From: Limisphaerales bacterium
Lineage (GTDB): Bacteria; Patescibacteriota; JACMRA01
Reading direction: 5' to 3'
Length of the DNA: 64,000 bases
Assembly: GCA_044361365.1 (NCBI GenBank)
Contig: JBIKIW010000001.1
Span: forward strand, 2,501 to 66,500
Positions 2,990-64,000 of the stretch are shown here, in pieces. Below the pieces are notes generated by a model that worked only from the letters and a program-made list of their open reading frames with translations, made no database searches and was not told where the DNA came from. How positions within the stretch are numbered: position 1 is the first letter of the stretch; the number at the start of each line of letters is the position of its first letter. A program made the position numbers and the translations under genes.

Positions 2990-3280
2990 TTATATTTTAC
3001 GTTCGTTATAAAGTTTATTTATATCAGTATTTGGATTGATTGGTGGTAATTTTGAAGATATTTTTTTTTGTTTATCAAGAAATGAAACTACTCTTTTATT
3101 TTCGATTTTTGAGTCAGCATTTAGCACAATACTAAATCGTTTCATTTTTTCACCGCGACCGTAGGTAAATTCGACTTCTTCGCCGTTGTAATAAATATCG
3201 TTGACGATATCACTTAGGTTTTGGCGGAGTTGTTTGGCTGAGACTGTTTTCATAAAAGTTAAAAGGTTGAACTTTGTCAA
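2990..3280 (-). CDS. Phd/YefM-like antitoxin (VapB partner)
   Basis: MKTVSAKQLRQNLSDIVNDIYYNGEEVEFTYGRGEK resembles Phd/YefM N-termini. The gap to the PIN gene is 6 nt. The true start is more likely the ATG at 3253 than the TTG at 3280. Confidence 0.7.
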   Translation of the reverse strand: MTKFNLLTFMKTVSAKQLRQNLSDIVNDIYYNGEEVEFTYGRGEKMKRFSIVLNADSKIENKRVVSFLDKQKKISSKLPPINPNTDINKLYNERKI

Positions 3281-3298
3281 GGTAAAAGTAGTAGATAA

Positions 3299-3327
3299 AA
3301 CTTACCACTACTTTAAAGTATTGTCAA
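3299..3327 (-). promoter_or_regulatory. Candidate sigma70-type promoter with an overlapping inverted repeat (putative TA autoregulatory operator)
   Basis: On the minus strand: TTGACA (3327-3322), a 17-nt spacer, then TAAGTT (3304-3299). The inverted-repeat arms aaagtagt (3285-3292) and actacttt (3307-3314) bracket the -10 element. Confidence 0.35.
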
Positions 3328-3476
3328 GTATTATCAATAAAGTAGCTAATAAATTGTATTTAATAAAGTTGAAAGGTTAAACTTTTGATGGTATTTTTGG
3401 ATTTATTTATGTCAACTTAAATATTGCCCTGCCAAAACAATTTGCCCAAACTTAAAAAGATTCGTTAGGTTTAGAT

Positions 3477-4025
3477 GTGTCCAAAACTGTTTTGATTTCT
3501 TGTTATGGGGTGTACGATTTAGAGCATCGAAACCCACTTCAGATCCAGGGTTTGCAGTCTTATTTTGGGGGGATTTATAAATATTTAAAGCCTATTAAAG
3601 ACGATTTAAAGTCGGTGATTTTTTGTGGAGGTTATCGGAATTTGGCAATTAGTGAAAGCCAAACTAGTCGGGATTATTTTTTAACTTTAGGTGCTGATTT
3701 TGAAAATTTCCCCTTGCTTTTAGAAACTAATTCTAAGTCCACACTTCAGAATCTAGCTCTAGGCTTTTTAACTGCCAACGAAGGTTTTTTGGGTCAAGAT
3801 TTGCTGATAATTTGTGATAGTTTTAGAGTAGAAAGAGTTAAAAATTTATCCAAGATTTTGTTTGAAGATCTAGGGCTAAAAATTGAAGTAAAAGGCTTTG
3901 AACGAAAAGATGATCACCCTCATTCTGATCAAAAATACCAACTAGAAACTGCTCTTCCGGGAGATTTAAACAGTCCAGAACTACAAACTTGGAAACAACT
4001 TTTAACCACTCAAATTACAAAATAA
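3477..4025 (+). CDS. DUF218/YdcF-like protein
   Basis: CGGYRNLAISESQTSRDYF...LLETNSKSTLQNLALG...LLIICDSFRVERV matches the DUF218 pattern (GG..SEA, S.nT.eN, vTs.fH..R). The stop at 4023-4025 lies 3 nt before the ATG of the valS C-terminal fragment. Confidence 0.55.
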   Translation: MSKTVLISCYGVYDLEHRNPLQIQGLQSYFGGIYKYLKPIKDDLKSVIFCGGYRNLAISESQTSRDYFLTLGADFENFPLLLETNSKSTLQNLALGFLTANEGFLGQDLLIICDSFRVERVKNLSKILFEDLGLKIEVKGFERKDDHPHSDQKYQLETALPGDLNSPELQTWKQLLTTQITK

Positions 4026-4028
4026 TTT

Positions 4029-4847
4029 ATGCTACAAACTCAAAATTTATCGCCGGCTTCCATTTGGATTTTGCAAAAATATGTGGAATTAGAAAACAGA
4101 TTAGAAGAAAATTTGGTGACCTACGAATTAGCTCATTCGGTGGACGGTTTATACAAATTTTTGTGGGATTTTTATGCCGATTGGTATGTGGAATATATCA
4201 AAACTGACCCAAGTCAGGTGCCTTTTGCTAAAGATCTTTTTAAGCAATTTATAGTTACTCTAAACCCGTATTCACCGTTTGAAACTGAAGCCCTGTGGCA
4301 AGATTTTTTTGGAGAAAAAGAAAGTTTAGCTTTGGTGCAAAAAGATGTAAGTTGGGCTAAAAATATTTGGTCGCAGATTGATCAAAATAGGGTAGGTGAG
4401 TTCCAAACAATTGTGGATTTTATTTCAGATGTGAGATCTCTGAGGGGTTTATTTGCTATCGACCCGGCAGTTTTTTTGGAGGTAAATTCGTCCACCAAAT
4501 TGCTATCGGTTTATGCTGATTTTATAAAATCCAGCTCAAGAGTACACATTTTGGATCAAGAAGTTGAGGGTTTGTACGAAGTTGCTAGTCAAAATTATAT
4601 TTACAAAATTGATATTATTAAATACATTCCAGACTTCCAAAAAGAAATTAAACGAACTGAAAAAATCTTAGAAAGCCTAGAAAAGCAAATCAAAGCTTTG
4701 GAAAGTCAGCTACAAAATGAATCATTTTTGAAAAACGCTGAAGCTGAAGTAATAGCAGAAAAAAGACAAGATTTAAGGAATAGAGAGTTAGAAAAAACCC
4801 AGCAAGAGCAAAAACTAAAATACATAACAAGCTCGATTTTAAGCTAA
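4029..4847 (+). CDS. valS: Valyl-tRNA synthetase C-terminal fragment (anticodon-binding domain plus C-terminal coiled coil)
   Basis: SIWILQKYVELENRL...YKFLWDFYADWYVEYIK aligns to the ValRS segment that directly follows the NKLWNASRF motif. The heptad-like tail IKALESQLQNESFLKNAEAEVIAEKRQ is typical of ValRS. Confidence 0.85.
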   Translation: MLQTQNLSPASIWILQKYVELENRLEENLVTYELAHSVDGLYKFLWDFYADWYVEYIKTDPSQVPFAKDLFKQFIVTLNPYSPFETEALWQDFFGEKESLALVQKDVSWAKNIWSQIDQNRVGEFQTIVDFISDVRSLRGLFAIDPAVFLEVNSSTKLLSVYADFIKSSSRVHILDQEVEGLYEVASQNYIYKIDIIKYIPDFQKEIKRTEKILESLEKQIKALESQLQNESFLKNAEAEVIAEKRQDLRNRELEKTQQEQKLKYITSSILS

Positions 4848-4883
4848 TAATTGCACTACCACAACTAAACTAAATTTATAATT

Positions 4884-5336
4884 ATGCACTGTCCAAAATG
4901 TTATCACCAGCACACCAAAGTCTATGATACTCGCCTAAGCCAAGGTGGAAAAGCCACTCGAAGACGCCGAGAATGTGAAGACTGTGGCTATAGATTTACA
5001 ACCCTTGAAGAAGTAAAAGTGTTAGATTTGAAAGTAGAAAAACGAAATGGACAGTTGGTTGATTTTAGCCAAGAAAAGCTAGAAAAAGGTATTCGAAAGG
5101 CTTTTAACAAGCGAAATACTGACAACCAAAAAATTGCTCAGCTGGTTCAAAAAGTAATTGAAGATACTTTAGCTACCGGCAAAAACCCTATTAAATCAAC
5201 TAGAATTGGTAAAATTGTACTCAAAAATCTCAAAAATACCGACGAAGCCGCATATGTTTGTTTTGGAGCAATGTTTTTAAGCTTTGAGAGTATTGAAGAT
5301 TTCCAAATGCTTCTTAAAGATGTTCAAAAGGATTAA
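4884..5336 (+). CDS. nrdR: Transcriptional repressor NrdR
   Basis: MHCPKC...VYDTR...RRRRECEDCGYRFTTLEEV zinc ribbon followed by an ATP-cone region; 150 aa. Confidence 0.9.
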   Translation: MHCPKCYHQHTKVYDTRLSQGGKATRRRRECEDCGYRFTTLEEVKVLDLKVEKRNGQLVDFSQEKLEKGIRKAFNKRNTDNQKIAQLVQKVIEDTLATGKNPIKSTRIGKIVLKNLKNTDEAAYVCFGAMFLSFESIEDFQMLLKDVQKD

Positions 5337-5350
5337 CACATTTTAAATTT

Positions 5351-5917
5351 CTATTTTGAAGTATCTCTTTCCGAGTATTCATCTTCAACGGTATTTACCA
5401 GGATTTGCTCTCCAATTTTAATAAATCCTGGTACTTTCACAACTTTTCCAGTTTCAATGGTAGCATCTTTCATTACCCCTTGAACAGTATTTCCCTTATC
5501 TACATCTGCAGTAAGAATTACTTTATAAGAAATCTTAATAGGCAAATCGATACTTATAGGATTTTCGTTAAAATATATAATCGCAATCTCCAAACCTTCT
5601 TTAAGGTAATCAACTTTATCAGCCATAATACTACCAGGTATTTCTACAGTTTCATAGGTTTCAGACTCCATAAAACTAAGAACTTCTCCAGTTTTATACA
5701 TAAAAGTTGCCATTCTTTTGGCAAGATCTGCCTCTTCTACAGATTCTCCACTTTTGAAAGAGTAATCTACGTTATTACCGGTTATCAAGTTTTTCATAAC
5801 ACACTTCTTAACAGGTTTTCGTTGTTGCATTCTCAAAAAGTCACACTTTACAATCACACAAGGATTGTTATTAAACTGAACCACTTTACCCAGTTTAATT
5901 TCAGAAAAATCGAGCAT
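5351..5917 (-). CDS. efp: Elongation factor P
   Basis: 188 aa with the EF-P three-domain layout, including LRMQQRKPVKKCVMKNLITG and C-terminal OB-like repeats. Confidence 0.9.
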   Translation of the reverse strand: MLDFSEIKLGKVVQFNNNPCVIVKCDFLRMQQRKPVKKCVMKNLITGNNVDYSFKSGESVEEADLAKRMATFMYKTGEVLSFMESETYETVEIPGSIMADKVDYLKEGLEIAIIYFNENPISIDLPIKISYKVILTADVDKGNTVQGVMKDATIETGKVVKVPGFIKIGEQILVNTVEDEYSERDTSK

Positions 5918-6032
5918 AAATTAAATATAATTTAACTTATTTCAAAAGAGTTTGTTTTGTCAAAATATACCATGAATTAGGCTCGAATCGGCACCGTTTA
6001 GGCATGCTTAATAACTTATTTTTTATAACTGT

Positions 6033-6061
6033 TTGACAATCAACCAAGCTTTTCGTAGATT
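6033..6061 (+). promoter_or_regulatory. Candidate promoter of tRNA-Ser
   Basis: TTGACA (6033-6038), a 17-nt spacer, then TAGATT (6056-6061). The tRNA 5' end at 6068 lies 7 nt downstream. Confidence 0.45.
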
Positions 6062-6067
6062 ATATTT

Positions 6068-6155
6068 GGAAGTGTCGCCTAGTGGCCTATGGCGGCGGTC
6101 TTGAAAACCGCTTGGGCTTATACCCTCGTGAGTTCGAATCTCACCACTTCCGCCA
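6068..6155 (+). tRNA. tRNA-Ser (anticodon UGA), long variable arm, CCA encoded
   Basis: Acceptor GGAAGTG/CACTTCC. Anticodon stem GCGGT/ACCGC with loop CTTGAAA. Variable arm TTGGGCTTATACCCTC. T arm GTGAG-TTCGAAT-CTCAC. Confidence 0.9.
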
Positions 6156-58851: not shown

Positions 58852-59031
58852 CTAAGGCTATTTTTAGCCAACAAGTAGTTTTGGTCAAAGGGGTGGGTTG
58901 GTGAATTAGGTTGATTTAAAAACCAAGAAGGTATTCAGCTTTAAATAATAACAGGGTTGATTTTTTTAAACTGATTAGGCTTAAATCACAAACTTGCCTA
59001 TTTTTGAAAAACTGTTAATTTTTCGCTCATT

Positions 59032-59334
59032 ATGACTACATGCCCACATGGACACGGAAACCTCAACAAAATAAACAAACAAGGTATTGAAATCGAATAT
59101 TGCCCAGTTTGTGGCGGAGTTTGGCTGGATAGAGGGGAGCTTGAAAATTTAATCGATTTAGCCTCCAGAGCCAGTGCTTCAGCTCAAAATATGGCACCTA
59201 ATTTAGATTTTGATAAGCCAAAACAAACCGACAACTTTTCTCAAAATAGAGACTCCCAGCCATACAACAAAGATTTCAAGAAAAAGAAAAAAGAAGGGTT
59301 TTTAGGTGAGATTTTCGATTTCGATTTGTTTTAG
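59032..59334 (+). CDS. TFIIB-type zinc-ribbon protein
   Basis: CPHGHG...IEYCPVCGGVWLDRGELENL matches the zf-TFIIB family pattern. Confidence 0.7.
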   Translation: MTTCPHGHGNLNKINKQGIEIEYCPVCGGVWLDRGELENLIDLASRASASAQNMAPNLDFDKPKQTDNFSQNRDSQPYNKDFKKKKKEGFLGEIFDFDLF

Positions 59335-59453
59335 TTTTGTAAGATAAAAAACGGTATAAATCAAGATTTTTTTAAACTCGAAGAAAATTTATAGTGCTAA
59401 AATAACTTTATTGACAAATAGCACATTACTATATTTTTTATAATGACACCGTT

Positions 59454-60506
59454 ATGACGCCAACTCACTTTAAATTTATTGATCTGTTTGCAGGAATAGG
59501 AGGCTTTAGAATAGCCTTGGATAATTTAGAGGGCGAGTGTGTTTTTAGCTCTGATATTGATCTGGAGTGTCAAAAAACTTATCAAGCAAATTTTGGAGAA
59601 TTACCTTTTGGCGATATTACAAAAATTGATCCAGAAAATGTACCTCAGCATGATGTTTTGTGTGCGGGTTTTCCATGTCAGCCATTTTCTATTTGTGGCT
59701 TGCAGAGGGGTTTTGAAGATACCAGGGGTACCTTGTTTTTTAATATAATGCAGATTATTAAAGCACAAAATCCTAGTATAGTTTTTTTAGAAAATGTAAA
59801 ACATCTTAAACATCACGACAAAGGGCGAACTCTAGAAGTTATTGTAGAAACCTTGCAAAACGAAGGTTATTTTGTAAATTGGAAAGTTTTAAATGCAAAA
59901 AATTTTGGTTTGGCTCAAAATCGAGAAAGAATCATTATTATAGGCACAAAGAACAAACCTTTTAATTTTAATAAAATAACTACAAAAAAAGCAGTCAAAA
60001 TTAGAGATATTTTAGAAACTAGAGACGATTTTAGTTATTTAAACCCAGAGGAGTACACTATTTTGGATAGAAATTTGTGGAAAGTGCAAGAAAGCGGTTT
60101 GATATTTTGTGGTTTTAGAAATAAATCAATTAGAACTAAAGGAACCAGACCAGACACCGAACATTTGTCCAGAGTTCACAAGCAACCAAACAGAATTTAC
60201 CATATTGATGGCACTCACCCAACTATACCTTCGCAAGAGGTTTCAGGTAGGTTTTTTATTTATGACGGTGAAAAAGTCAGAAAAATGACTATAAAAGAGT
60301 GTTTCAGGTTACAAGGTTTTCCAGACGATTACAAAAAAATTAGTTCAAATGGAAATTTATACAAACAAATTGGTAACTCTGTAGCCATTCCGATGATTCA
60401 AGCAGTTGGGGAAGAGTTGGTAAAAAGTCATTTGATTGATAGAAGTCCTATTTTAAATCATGTTTTTAGTTTGGAGAAAGTATCAGTGATGGAAAGGTTG
60501 TTTTAG
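59454..60506 (+). CDS. dcm: DNA (cytosine-5) methyltransferase
   Basis: Motif I FAGIGGF, motif IV GFPCQPFS, motif VI ENVKHL, motif VIII QNRERIIIIG, motif X YKQIGNSVAIPM. Confidence 0.9.
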   Translation: MTPTHFKFIDLFAGIGGFRIALDNLEGECVFSSDIDLECQKTYQANFGELPFGDITKIDPENVPQHDVLCAGFPCQPFSICGLQRGFEDTRGTLFFNIMQIIKAQNPSIVFLENVKHLKHHDKGRTLEVIVETLQNEGYFVNWKVLNAKNFGLAQNRERIIIIGTKNKPFNFNKITTKKAVKIRDILETRDDFSYLNPEEYTILDRNLWKVQESGLIFCGFRNKSIRTKGTRPDTEHLSRVHKQPNRIYHIDGTHPTIPSQEVSGRFFIYDGEKVRKMTIKECFRLQGFPDDYKKISSNGNLYKQIGNSVAIPMIQAVGEELVKSHLIDRSPILNHVFSLEKVSVMERLF

Positions 60507-60507
60507 T

Positions 60508-61191
60508 ATGGCTAATGTAATTATCAATGGAATCCAGGCGGAAATTGATAATGGTTTATCAAACATTGTTGGTTATAATTTTTTAAAAACCGTATTTTCA
60601 AATCATCAAACTATTCAGAAAAAAAGAGCAGAAGAATTTTTAGAATTTATCAAAGAAAATGAACAGAAATTTACTGTTGAACTTATAAATAATGAATGTT
60701 TTGTATCAGGCTTAGCTTTAACTTTAAGAGAAATAATTCAACAATACTCAGAAATTAAAAGGGTAAAAATTTACTCAATTTTTCTAGGTTTTGTAGAGTC
60801 AGAAGATAAAGAAAATTTTGAGTTAGAAAAAATGTATCATACTTTGAATTTGATGTCGCTAGAAGACCTACACATCTTAAATAACTATAGTGGCTTAGGA
60901 GTTTTTAGATTAACACAAGACGAGGTTGTGCAAGAGACAAAAGATGGTATTAAGGTTTTATTTAGTCGTGAAAATATGAAAAACTTAGCCTCGATAGGGA
61001 TTGTAAAGGAAGACATAGAATTTAGAGATGAAAAGGAGGCAAGGGTCGGGAATTTAAACAGCTCAACATTTTCAGTTTTGGAAGATTCATTGTTTAAAAA
61101 AGGTGTTATCTATGTTGAAATTTATGAATACACCAATTTTGGTAAAAAATTTAAAAAATTCGCTTTCTCACAAAACAGATTAAAAATATAA
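60508..61191 (+). CDS. Hypothetical 227-aa protein embedded in the R-M operon
   Basis: The ATG lies 1 nt after the methyltransferase stop. No Vsr, HTH (C-protein) or nuclease motif is recognised. Confidence 0.55.
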   Translation: MANVIINGIQAEIDNGLSNIVGYNFLKTVFSNHQTIQKKRAEEFLEFIKENEQKFTVELINNECFVSGLALTLREIIQQYSEIKRVKIYSIFLGFVESEDKENFELEKMYHTLNLMSLEDLHILNNYSGLGVFRLTQDEVVQETKDGIKVLFSRENMKNLASIGIVKEDIEFRDEKEARVGNLNSSTFSVLEDSLFKKGVIYVEIYEYTNFGKKFKKFAFSQNRLKI

Positions 61192-61203
61192 AATAATTCT
61201 GAC

Positions 61204-62340
61204 ATGTCCCAAGCCCATCACCAACTTTTAGAAGATATTTACAACCAAGTTTTAGCTGAACTTGAGGCAAGGGATTTTGTGGCTAACACACCAAAAGAAT
61301 TAAATATTGAAGTTATAAATTGGATTGAAATAATTGCCAAAAATAGCGAGAATTTTTTGGGTGTTTTGAATGTAACTGTAACCAGTTTAACTGAAAAAAT
61401 AGTTAGTCCTAATCAAGATATTAGAAAACATCAGGCAAAAATGGAAGGAGGTTATTCTGGTAGAACGCTGGACACAAAAACCATTGCACCTTGGCTCAAA
61501 TCTAAAAAACTTAAATCCATGGTAGAAAGTGGCTGGCTTACAAGGTCTTTAGAGCAAGATTCTCCTTATACTTTGGATTACAAGGGAGCTATTAGAAATA
61601 AAGAGGTTAAAGAAGCTTTTTTGCAACTACTCAATTTTATACAAAATAATCAAGCGAAAACTACTTTGTGTTTAAAATATCTCTTTCAGCTTTTAATTAT
61701 TCAAAGAGAACAAAATAAAGTAGAAATTAACCCGCTAGCTAAAAAATCTAAATACTCTATAACTGAAATAATTGACTTGTTAACCAAGCATTTTACTCAA
61801 ACCAGTCAAGTTGGAACTGCTAGGTTGCCTGTTTTGGCTATCTATTCAGTTTATCAGATCATTATAAAAGAGGTAGGCAGGTATGAAGAAAAAACTTTAC
61901 AACCTTTAGGGTCTCATACTTCTGCTGACCTCCGTTCTGGCGATATTGGAGATATTCAAATAAATGACAAAAATGACAAACCTTTTGAAGGGGTAGAGGT
62001 AAAATATGGTAAGCTAATTGACCATGCTTTGGTGGAAGACGCTTTTGAAAAAATCAAACAATATCCAGTAAATAGGTATTATTTGCTTTCAACAGAAATA
62101 ACCACTGGTGAAGAATTGGTCAAAATCCAAACTACTATTGATGAAATAAGCAAACAACACGGTTGTCAGGTAATAGTTAATGGACTTATTCCTACAATCA
62201 AATATTATTTAAGATTGATTAGTGACACAGACGATTTTTTACAAAATTACACAGACAATATCATCAATGACCCAGCTATAAAAATTGACCATAAAAGATA
62301 TTGGAAAAACTTGGTTGAAAACTCTACTAATAAAAACTAA
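61204..62340 (+). CDS. Putative type II restriction endonuclease
   Basis: Position behind the C5-MTase. Candidate PD-(D/E)xK core SGDIGDIQ...FEGVEVKYG. Confidence 0.5.
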   Translation: MSQAHHQLLEDIYNQVLAELEARDFVANTPKELNIEVINWIEIIAKNSENFLGVLNVTVTSLTEKIVSPNQDIRKHQAKMEGGYSGRTLDTKTIAPWLKSKKLKSMVESGWLTRSLEQDSPYTLDYKGAIRNKEVKEAFLQLLNFIQNNQAKTTLCLKYLFQLLIIQREQNKVEINPLAKKSKYSITEIIDLLTKHFTQTSQVGTARLPVLAIYSVYQIIIKEVGRYEEKTLQPLGSHTSADLRSGDIGDIQINDKNDKPFEGVEVKYGKLIDHALVEDAFEKIKQYPVNRYYLLSTEITTGEELVKIQTTIDEISKQHGCQVIVNGLIPTIKYYLRLISDTDDFLQNYTDNIINDPAIKIDHKRYWKNLVENSTNKN

Positions 62341-63561: not shown

Positions 63562-63807
63562 ATGATCACCAAAACCGTTAGAATAACTTTAGATTTACCC
63601 CTTAAATTGCACACTCAAGTCAAAACTAAAGCAAGTCAAAATGGGCAAACTCTAAAGCAGTTTTTTATAGATTTGGCGACTGGTAAAAATCAAAATTTAG
63701 TAAATGCCAAAAAAAATACTAGGAAAATGCCAAAAGGTGTGAAACTTGGTGTAAATGAGGATCAGATCAAACAAATAATTAGTGAAACATGGCTACCAAA
63801 GTTTTAA
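63562..63807 (+). CDS. Ribbon-helix-helix antitoxin (VapB-like)
   Basis: VRITLDLPLKLHTQVKTKASQNGQTLKQFFIDL is an RHH pattern. It overlaps the downstream PIN gene by 19 nt. Confidence 0.55.
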   Translation: MITKTVRITLDLPLKLHTQVKTKASQNGQTLKQFFIDLATGKNQNLVNAKKNTRKMPKGVKLGVNEDQIKQIISETWLPKF

Positions 63808-64000
63808 TTGATACCAATGTTTTGATTTACACTTTCGTTGTAGATAGTCCATTTTATGCAAAAAGTAGAGAGTTTTTGGAAGGTTTAATTCAAGATAAAG
63901 AAGTGGAAATTTGCATTACTGAAAAATCACTTTTTGAAATGGTAGTTGTTTTTGCAAGTCCAGCTTTTTTGGGCAAAATTGAAGTGGTGCAAATAAAAGA
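63789..64000 (+). CDS. vapC: PIN-domain toxin (VapC-like), 3' partial
   Basis: The MATKVLIDTNVLIY N-terminus is nearly identical in style to the PIN gene at 2528-2983. The ORF runs off the window. Confidence 0.75.
   Translation, partial: MATKVLIDTNVLIYTFVVDSPFYAKSREFLEGLIQDKEVEICITEKSLFEMVVVFASPAFLGKIEVVQIK

Follow-up and report, generated by a model that had tools for sequence, protein, structure and literature searches.

What is the role of an unannotated gene that lies between the methyltransferase and nuclease genes of a restriction-modification (R-M) operon, and does it belong to the restriction system or only reside in it? This question is raised by a 64,000-nucleotide (nt) stretch of contig JBIKIW010000001.1 (positions 2,501 to 66,500 of the forward strand; assembly GCA_044361365.1) from a Limisphaerales bacterium that GTDB places in the Patescibacteriota (JACMRA01). 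We refer to the whole of this stretch as the window. At positions 59454-62340 it carries three closely packed plus-strand open reading frames (ORFs), encoding in order a DNA (cytosine-5) methyltransferase, M; a protein with no family match, X; and a putative restriction endonuclease, R. An earlier note on this DNA had described the same arrangement, and we re-found its coordinates and lengths exactly, with gaps of 1 nt between M and X (TAG-T-ATG) and 12 nt between X and R. The note had left X unexplained, as a nuclease subunit, a specificity or regulatory factor, or an unrelated defence gene riding in the operon. Our analysis leads us to regard X as, on balance, probably an autonomous accessory guest gene of restriction loci rather than a core R-M subunit, and as such a candidate for a role in defence.

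The C-terminal module of X is exchanged as a cassette

Comparison of the window with the syntenic locus of a close relative (L001) revealed a sharply bounded replacement within X. The two DNAs are 97.4% identical from 58908 to 60866, have no detectable similarity from 60867 to 61203, and from 61204 are again 96.9% identical, the similarity resuming exactly at the ATG of R. The swapped segment corresponds exactly to residues 121-227 of X together with the spacer that follows it. On the N-terminal side of this boundary, 116 of the first 120 residues of X are identical between the two strains, and the neighbouring proteins are equally close (M 97.4%, R 96.8%, DeoC 98.3% and a zinc-ribbon protein 100% identical). 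The C-terminal module (C-module) of X has been replaced as a cassette between strains that are otherwise approximately 97% identical. Module exchange, not decay, is the appropriate description, because a C-module of the same type has been kept at 81% amino-acid identity between the window and a third locus, L054. More widely, C-module types are shuffled among X genes that have different genomic contexts. The N-terminal module (N-module) of the window protein is 97% identical to that of homologue P0003, against 27% for the C-module, while P0003 and P0009, the latter encoded between a gene for a 143-amino-acid (aa) protein and a Ham1 gene, share 74% identity in the N-module and 82% in the C-module. 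Similarly, P0004 and P0010 are 59% identical in the N-module and 71% identical in the C-module, and P0010 is encoded between an MmeI-type enzyme and a STAND protein.

X is an optional occupant of a variable slot

The junction between M and R also varies among related operons. In one relative (G042), whose R is 51% identical to that of the window, M and R overlap directly and nothing lies between them. In a second (G024; R 67% identical) the slot is filled by a 324-aa ORF unrelated to X, and at a third locus (L033), where R is 89% identical and the chromosomal neighbourhood is a different one, it holds a 255-aa protein that is likewise unrelated to X. With or without X, R is collinear and equal in length and architecture. 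The M-R junction is a slot whose guest differs between operons, and X is optional. Because the middle ORF is missing from or replaced in related operons, which is the observation that the earlier note had named as telling, X is disfavoured as an integral component, and the suggestion that it is an obligate nuclease subunit or specificity factor is unlikely to hold. As to the co-occurrence of X with R that the note proposed to look for, each is present in 3 of 61 relatives' genomes, and the two coincide only in the window's own genome.

The other guests have features of their own. The L033 protein matches HEPN_AbiU2 (PF18734) over profile positions 2-183 of 193 (E=7.6e-5), scoring 22.7 bits against a cutoff of 26.8 bits, and carries an R-x5-H motif (LRNNVIAHRG); the protein is probably an RNase acting in abortive infection and housed in a Type II R-M operon. 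The 324-aa ORF of G024 (L021:3383-4357, plus strand; G024:C34) is rich in Cys and His (CSYCNKDF...CCHW...HKGYYPHYH), and had no match in Pfam or PADLOC.

X represents a sporadic family under purifying selection

No match to X was found in Pfam, NCBIfam, PADLOC or PHROGs, the sole signal being a chance-level match to ZinT, and 90 aligned members of its family gave no supported family match either. This agrees with the statements of the earlier note that X is not a very-short-patch repair endonuclease (Vsr), a candidate which we rejected in the absence of any match in Pfam or NCBIfam, and that it has no NTPase motif. Relatives of X are nevertheless numerous: a word-indexed search recovered 15, and an exhaustive profile search gave 325 representative clusters, of which 230 reached E<=1e-10; nearly all are of 170-300 aa. 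The named members are all annotated as hypothetical protein and come mostly from Patescibacteria, and these searches define a previously unannotated family centred on that phylum. X is sporadic: only 8 of the 401 genomes that were sampled from the phylum carry it (2%), and it had no match among sequenced phages, among plasmids or in IMG/VR. Between the window and L054, X is 86% identical, M 75% and R 82%, and the ratio of nonsynonymous to synonymous substitution rates (dN/dS) is 0.075 for X, similar to the 0.088 of R, and 0.11 for the N-module of X. X is a real gene under purifying selection.

Alignment of the family divides X into two parts. The N-terminal 120-130 residues are conserved, with the pattern KR..I..IFLGF....DKE.FELE(K/R).Y..LN(L).S..D(L/I). 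The near-invariant residues are F65, K84, R85, F92 and E107, of which only K84, R85 and E107 are charged; none of the invariant residues looks catalytic, and X is likely to be non-enzymatic. The C-terminal part, of 63-145 residues, varies among members apart from a core, L..(I/L)G(I/L)...(Y)x(L)T.FG..F, with a beta hairpin between its halves, and a lineage-specific insert falls within the wing of this winged-helix-like core. When the X profile was compared with the PDB, 17 of 21 weak matches were PadR proteins aligned on the L..LGI...LT.FG core, all of them below threshold (E 0.15-0.9). A first structural model, built from a 15-sequence alignment, had a predicted local distance difference test score (pLDDT) of 66.8. 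A second, built by AlphaFold from a 90-sequence alignment, reached a pLDDT of 83.8 and a predicted template modelling score of 0.78, with residues 30-130 above a pLDDT of 92. The remote-homology searches and structure prediction that the earlier note had proposed for X thus gave no significant family or fold match. The possibility that X is a membrane or strongly basic protein was rejected, as a membrane segment is lacking in most members and neither module is basic, both being slightly acidic.

X recurs beside restriction enzymes of several classes

The arrangement of C5 methyltransferase, X and R is found in the window, in L001 and in L054. The L054 copy is carried by an integrative element that also encodes a large serine recombinase, a SpoVG-like protein and a replication-initiator-like protein. 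X also occurs with restriction enzymes of other kinds. At L008 it stands between an MmeI-type enzyme and a 1353-aa STAND NTPase; in G087 it lies within a complete Type I operon of the order hsdM-X-hsdS-384aa-hsdR; and at L030 an Mrr_cat gene (502 aa) is followed by X as a separate, overlapping gene. In homologue P0231 and in a Fimivivens protein the entire X module is fused N-terminally to Mrr_cat (hhalign 99.9%, E=1.8e-35), the Mrr_cat domain of the fusion scoring 23.7 bits against a cutoff of 21 bits. An R-M enzyme gene lies directly upstream of X in 4 of approximately 18 independent unfused contexts, for which the binomial probability is approximately 4e-4 on the assumption that at most 2% of genes are R-M genes. 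A search of genome contigs with a narrow X alignment returned 4 loci.

Elsewhere the neighbours of X are more varied. X accompanies a serine recombinase at L005, where the next gene has a weak Abi_alpha match; it lies near a LexA-S24-N6-methyltransferase fusion and a muramidase at L028, and near an rve integrase, a ParB-methyltransferase and DUF2779 at L032; and in G092 a tyrosine integrase is directly upstream. All-versus-all BLAST of the neighbours at 20 loci found no constant partner, and only mobile-element genes recurred, such as serine recombinases at 3 loci. Three ORFs of about 385 aa near X were considered as a hidden partner and rejected, since the same comparison found them unrelated to one another.

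Several further features of these loci were observed. The STAND-type NTPase at L008 (L008:2287-6348, plus strand) has weak NACHT, NB-ARC and nSTAND matches at residues 176-357, and with the MmeI-type enzyme and X it forms a compact defence-like cluster of three genes, carried by a short metagenomic contig. The 384-aa ORF between hsdS and hsdR in G087 (L049:3640-4794, minus strand; G087:C3) is a second embedded unknown in that operon, with no Pfam match. L054:2519-8496 and L005:8939-11844 share a backbone of a SpoVG-like gene, an ORF of approximately 300-365 aa and a large serine recombinase, and the backbone ORF in L054 has a faint Phage_CRI match; this resemblance suggests a family of Patescibacteria integrative elements in which X travels either with M and R or apart from them. 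X lies beside Ham1/ITPase and NUDIX genes at L011, a NUDIX gene at L031, and an HD_3 5'-deoxynucleotidase and a PTPS/QueD-like gene at L052 (G325:C1). This proximity to genes of nucleotide house-cleaning or modification may be coincidental, or may reflect a second association that recurs.

M and R probably form an ordinary Type II pair

M matched PF00145 (E=5.7e-97) over profile positions 1-323 of 324, TIGR00675 of NCBIfam (E=1.2e-95) and PADLOC MTase_II (E=5.8e-113). By these matches M is a complete C5 DNA methyltransferase, and the earlier note had rightly credited it with all the motifs of the class. Its closest solved relative is M.HhaI (7.8e-68, aligned over the full length), to which the target recognition domain (TRD) of M aligns merely in patches.

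A deep search for homologues of R gave 2061 clusters, most of them with a precomputed match to PF09566 (RE_SacI / RE_SacI_N; PF09566.18), and the statement of the note that R has no other recognisable feature is therefore not correct for its family. The window protein had no hmmscan match to PF09566 at E<=10 and matched no Pfam family by hmmscan, while homologue P0041 passes PF09566 marginally (E=6.9e-4, 20.1 bits against a cutoff of 19.3 bits). The PD-(D/E)xK core (IGD...EVK) that the note had proposed is confirmed as conservation: an alignment of 41 members with identities down to 46% shows no variation at D242, G249, D250, E262, E265, K267 or K283, and D250, E265 and K267 would be the catalytic residues. 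Sequence and profile searches of the PDB found no solved homologue of R. In every context inspected, the R gene follows or adjoins a C5 methyltransferase gene. These data support R as a putative PD-(D/E)xK nuclease of a large methyltransferase-linked, RE_SacI_N-tagged family. The best explanation of M and R, with the role of R predicted, is an ordinary, self-sufficient Type II R-M pair, in agreement with the earlier assignment of an R-M operon.

Two known enzymes were considered as guides to the recognition site. GCGC, the site of HhaI, is avoided more strongly than any other 4-bp palindrome in the 1.48-Mb host genome, with 65 occurrences observed against approximately 797 expected (observed/expected ratio, O/E, 0.08), and M is more like M.HhaI than any other solved structure. 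GAGCTC, the site of SacI, has an O/E of 0.26, and it is the relatives of R that carry the RE_SacI_N tag rather than the window protein, which does not itself reach PF09566. Other palindromes are avoided as well (O/E for GGCC 0.26, CGCG 0.40 and ACGT 0.43; among 6-bp palindromes, GTCGAC 0.25, GTGCAC 0.26, GTATAC 0.28 and GAATTC 0.41). With six C5 methyltransferase genes, the host bears an unusually heavy R-M load for so small a genome, and because of this palindrome avoidance, although it points to GCGC, cannot assign the site of M or R. Reading the site from M itself was rejected, since the TRD is too divergent from that of M.HhaI.

Organisation of the locus

Coordinates are collected in Table 1. 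The G+C content is approximately 30-33% across M, X and R, with no compositional break. A 12-mer hairpin core was considered as a mark of insertion of the operon and rejected, since its matches were at chance level and none of them flanked the three genes. The absence of a Shine-Dalgarno-like sequence 5' of R suggests that its translation is coupled to that of X. Upstream of M, a perfect TTGACA (59411-59416) is followed by a perfect TATAAT (59439-59444) at a distance of 22 nt, a spacing that caused the pair to be missed by a consensus promoter scan. Were this TATAAT used, the M transcript would be almost leaderless, as the ATG is at 59454. The zinc-ribbon gene is context only: it falls within the syntenic block common to the window and L001, does not belong to the R-M unit of either L054 or L033, and is absent beside M-X-R in L054. 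An 81-aa ORF 1.2 kb 3' of the R-M operon overlaps the 5' end of a PIN-domain ORF, itself cut by the end of the window (63562-63998, plus strand), the L001 orthologue of which is annotated as PF01850 PIN (146 aa). These two ORFs are a probable VapBC-type toxin-antitoxin pair.

Table 1. Features of the M-X-R locus in the window and of the related L033 locus
Feature	Position	Strand	Basis or remark
Zinc-ribbon gene, 100 aa	59032..59334	+	PF13453 Zn_ribbon_TFIIB, E=4.8e-14; 100% amino-acid identity to L001
M, Type II DNA (cytosine-5) methyltransferase, 350 aa	59454..60506	+	PF00145, TIGR00675, PADLOC MTase_II
X, unannotated protein, 227 aa	60508..61191	+	no family match
X N-module, residues 1-120, conserved helical domain	60508..60867	+	family alignments, model
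X C-module, residues 121-227, exchangeable, winged-helix-like core	60868..61191	+	swap against L001; sub-threshold PadR matches
X-R spacer, 12 nt	61192..61203	+	belongs to swapped cassette; 5 nt in L001, 17 nt in L054
R, putative Type II restriction endonuclease, 378 aa	61204..62340	+	RE_SacI_N-tagged family
R, predicted PD-(D/E)xK catalytic residue D250	61951-61953	+	conservation
R, predicted PD-(D/E)xK catalytic residue E265	61996-61998	+	conservation
R, predicted PD-(D/E)xK catalytic residue K267	62002-62004	+	conservation
L033, C5 methyltransferase	3170-4225		
L033, 255-aa protein	4227-4994	+	
L033, R homologue	5001-6149		

Discussion

Of the options raised by the earlier note, a defence gene riding in the operon fits X best, although the word "unrelated" is doubtful given the recurrent link of X to restriction enzymes, including its fusion to an Mrr nuclease. 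In restriction loci X lodges by preference directly behind the methyltransferase gene, where it would be co-expressed with the restriction system, and M-X-R moves as a unit in at least three lineages, in one of them on a serine-recombinase integrative element. The fusion of X to a nuclease in one lineage and the cassette diversification of one of its modules are together suggestive of a recognition or sensor role in a setting of genetic conflict. One possible division of labour is that the variable C-module recognises or senses a ligand, either a nucleic acid or something derived from an invader, while the constant N-module provides output or oligomerisation. X would in this case form a restriction-linked second layer or adaptor, similar in logic to the PrrC embedded in R-M systems, and in some lineages may supply an Mrr-type nuclease with its recognition half.

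Several observations weigh against this assignment of X as a defence candidate. All functional claims on X, including those of a defence role, of ligand sensing and of any interaction with R, are drawn from anatomy, distribution and evolution. Approximately half of the sampled contexts appear non-defensive, with neighbours of a housekeeping or nucleotide house-cleaning kind (Ham1/NUDIX, HD_3/PTPS, DUF218-murC, UvrD and YchF), and the survey of approximately 20 distinct loci is small and biased towards long contigs. The fusion to Mrr_cat represents a single lineage, its two proteins being 78% identical. The window protein and homologues P0010 and P0015 match no model in PADLOC-DB v2.0.0, in which P0303 matched AbiEi only (E=0.0076). 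Neither structural model had a Foldseek neighbour in the PDB or BFVD at E<=0.001; the winged-helix core of the C-module is a lead only, with a sub-threshold E of approximately 0.15; and the two modules each carry a slight negative charge (median net charge -2), which is atypical of a strong DNA binder.

A more specific proposal is possible, if doubtful: that X represents a new, Patescibacteria-centred class of modular restriction-linked sensors, in which a constant helical output domain is combined with a cassette-exchangeable recognition domain, and which would retarget or activate nucleases or guard R-M systems against phage counter-measures. Such a sensor would fit systems of any type, either behind the methyltransferase or fused to an Mrr nuclease, and its allelic diversification would be comparable to the shuffling of specificity subunits. 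It would then be an immune component that had escaped recognition.

Three other explanations of X must be considered. It is unlikely, though deserving of some weight, that X is a controller-like winged-helix transcriptional regulator which times or limits expression of R, or of whatever gene follows X elsewhere. X is directly upstream of R, closely coupled and co-oriented, as controller (C) proteins classically are, some of which are also fused to R (PMC12707154), and at other loci X precedes hsdS-hsdR, the STAND NTPase, the Abi_alpha-like gene, the muramidase or the Ham1 gene; a family of generic regulators would account for these mixed contexts, and the PadR-like matches of the C-module core, although below threshold, are of the appropriate kind. 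However, a presumed DNA-reading module has been swapped between 97%-identical strains while the flanking DNA remained unchanged, a single C-module type is found before different genes, and neither the spacer nor the region upstream of M is conserved between the window and L054. The idea that the swapped cassette brings its own operator or promoter for R was rejected, as no signal exceeded chance: promoter-like sites in and before the cassette numbered 12, against 13.5 +/- 4.1 in shuffled sequences, and inverted repeats were weak. The acidity of both modules and the size of X (227 aa) also speak against this role, and no helix-turn-helix (HTH) family was matched in Pfam or NCBIfam at E<=1. As such, the regulatory factor suggested by the earlier note is weakly possible from its position upstream of R, while size, the lack of an Xre-type HTH and the failure to find an operator count against it. 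The same size and lack of an Xre-type HTH uphold the statement of the note that X is not a C protein, but its assertion that X has no HTH was too strong in light of the sub-threshold PadR winged-helix matches.

That X is cargo of mobile elements or a housekeeping gene without a role in defence, for example a nucleoid- or element-associated binding factor for which the R-M operon is a permissive, well-expressed insertion site, is in our view quite unlikely. The same position directly after the methyltransferase in three R-M classes and the fusion to a restriction-type nuclease would not be expected of mere cargo, cassette diversification of one module is typical of conflict systems, presence in 2% of genomes is contrary to a housekeeping role, and searches of sequenced phages and plasmids and of IMG/VR contigs gave no X. 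Consistent with cargo, on the other hand, are the half of contexts without defence genes, the serine recombinases, integrases and element genes that recur nearby, and the failure of X to match any known defence model. The remaining explanation, that X is an integral targeting, specificity or activity subunit of R and that M-X-R is a three-component variant of the SacI_N type, we consider very improbable. It would account for the inheritance of M-X-R together in three lineages and at least two genomic settings including a mobile element, for the better conservation of X than of M or R between the window and L054, and for the fusion of the whole X module to a PD-(D/E)xK nuclease in a Firmicute together with the adjacency of X and Mrr_cat at L030. 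It is difficult to reconcile with more than 2000 clusters of R against a handful of M-X-R operons, with an R that is full-length and collinear where X is lacking, with unrelated genes in the same slot in close relatives, with an exchange of the C-module that brought no compensating change in R or M (97% identical), and with the presence of X beside entirely different neighbours or alone.

The assignment of X as an accessory guest gene is consistent with known genes that are embedded in R-M loci. PrrC is embedded in a Type IC R-M locus (PMC12707154), DarTG2 in a Type I locus (PMC12255303), and further candidates have been collected on the basis of guilt-by-embedding (Payne et al. 2024, doi 10.1101/2024.01.29.577857). 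Like X, these genes are dispensable for restriction, nested in an R-M operon, co-expressed with it, sporadic, and also found outside R-M loci, and as with PrrC and RloC an X homologue is nested in a full Type I operon (hsdM-X-hsdS-?-hsdR, G087). In contrast, PrrC and RloC combine an ABC-ATPase with an anticodon nuclease and DarT is an ADP-ribosyltransferase, whereas X is homologous to none of these and lacks any enzymatic motif. PrrC-type genes lie between hsdS and hsdR, whereas X directly follows the methyltransferase gene, and unlike them X is also found in Type II and MmeI-type systems. The PADLOC models include guilt-by-embedding candidates, none of which X matches.

Other systems resemble X in part. 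C protein genes are likewise immediately upstream of the nuclease gene and co-transcribed with it, X may hold a fold of the helix-turn-helix type, and the X-nuclease fusion has a parallel in C-R fusions. C proteins are, however, Xre-type HTH dimers of approximately 80-100 aa with a palindromic C-box operator at their own promoter, in contrast to X, with its large helical N-domain and exchanged C-module. The Type IV enzyme Mrr has an N-terminal winged-helix recognition domain and a C-terminal Mrr_cat, and in P0231 and the Fimivivens protein the X module takes the position of the recognition domain, while at L030 X is a separate gene overlapping that for Mrr_cat. The window X, by contrast, is free-standing and paired with a Type II nuclease of another family, and its likeness to the Mrr N-domain is one of position, with no similarity of sequence or fold demonstrated. 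Abi-alpha proteins (Abi_alpha/DUF4393) are helical, of approximately 200-290 aa and obscure in their biochemistry, and are found sporadically in prophages and defence islands; X is similar in size, and one X homologue precedes the gene with the weak Abi_alpha match. The top match of the first X model, which was not significant, was PDB 3H35, a structure reported to resemble Abi-alpha (PMC6356687), and 1 of the 90 family members matched Abi_alpha (PF14337; E=0.0066). Homology of X to Abi_alpha was rejected, as hmmscan gave no match and hhalign gave a profile-profile probability of 2.9%. The host's own genome had no Abi_alpha match even at E<=10.

Genes nested in immune operons have been a productive source of new anti-phage systems. 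Earlier surveys of embedding covered the genomes of cultured organisms and hosts of the Type I, BREX, DISARM and Hma classes, and the present case extends to a Type II operon in an uncultured lineage of Patescibacteria, in which one guest family recurs in four classes of restriction systems and diversifies by module swap between near-identical strains. Should X do nothing for defence, it would still provide a clean example of an operon-internal hitch-hiking site. If X does modulate restriction or serve as a back-up to it, the R-M toolkit would gain a modular component that is not an enzyme, and X would offer a handle on immunity in the candidate phyla radiation, a field almost without experimental tests.

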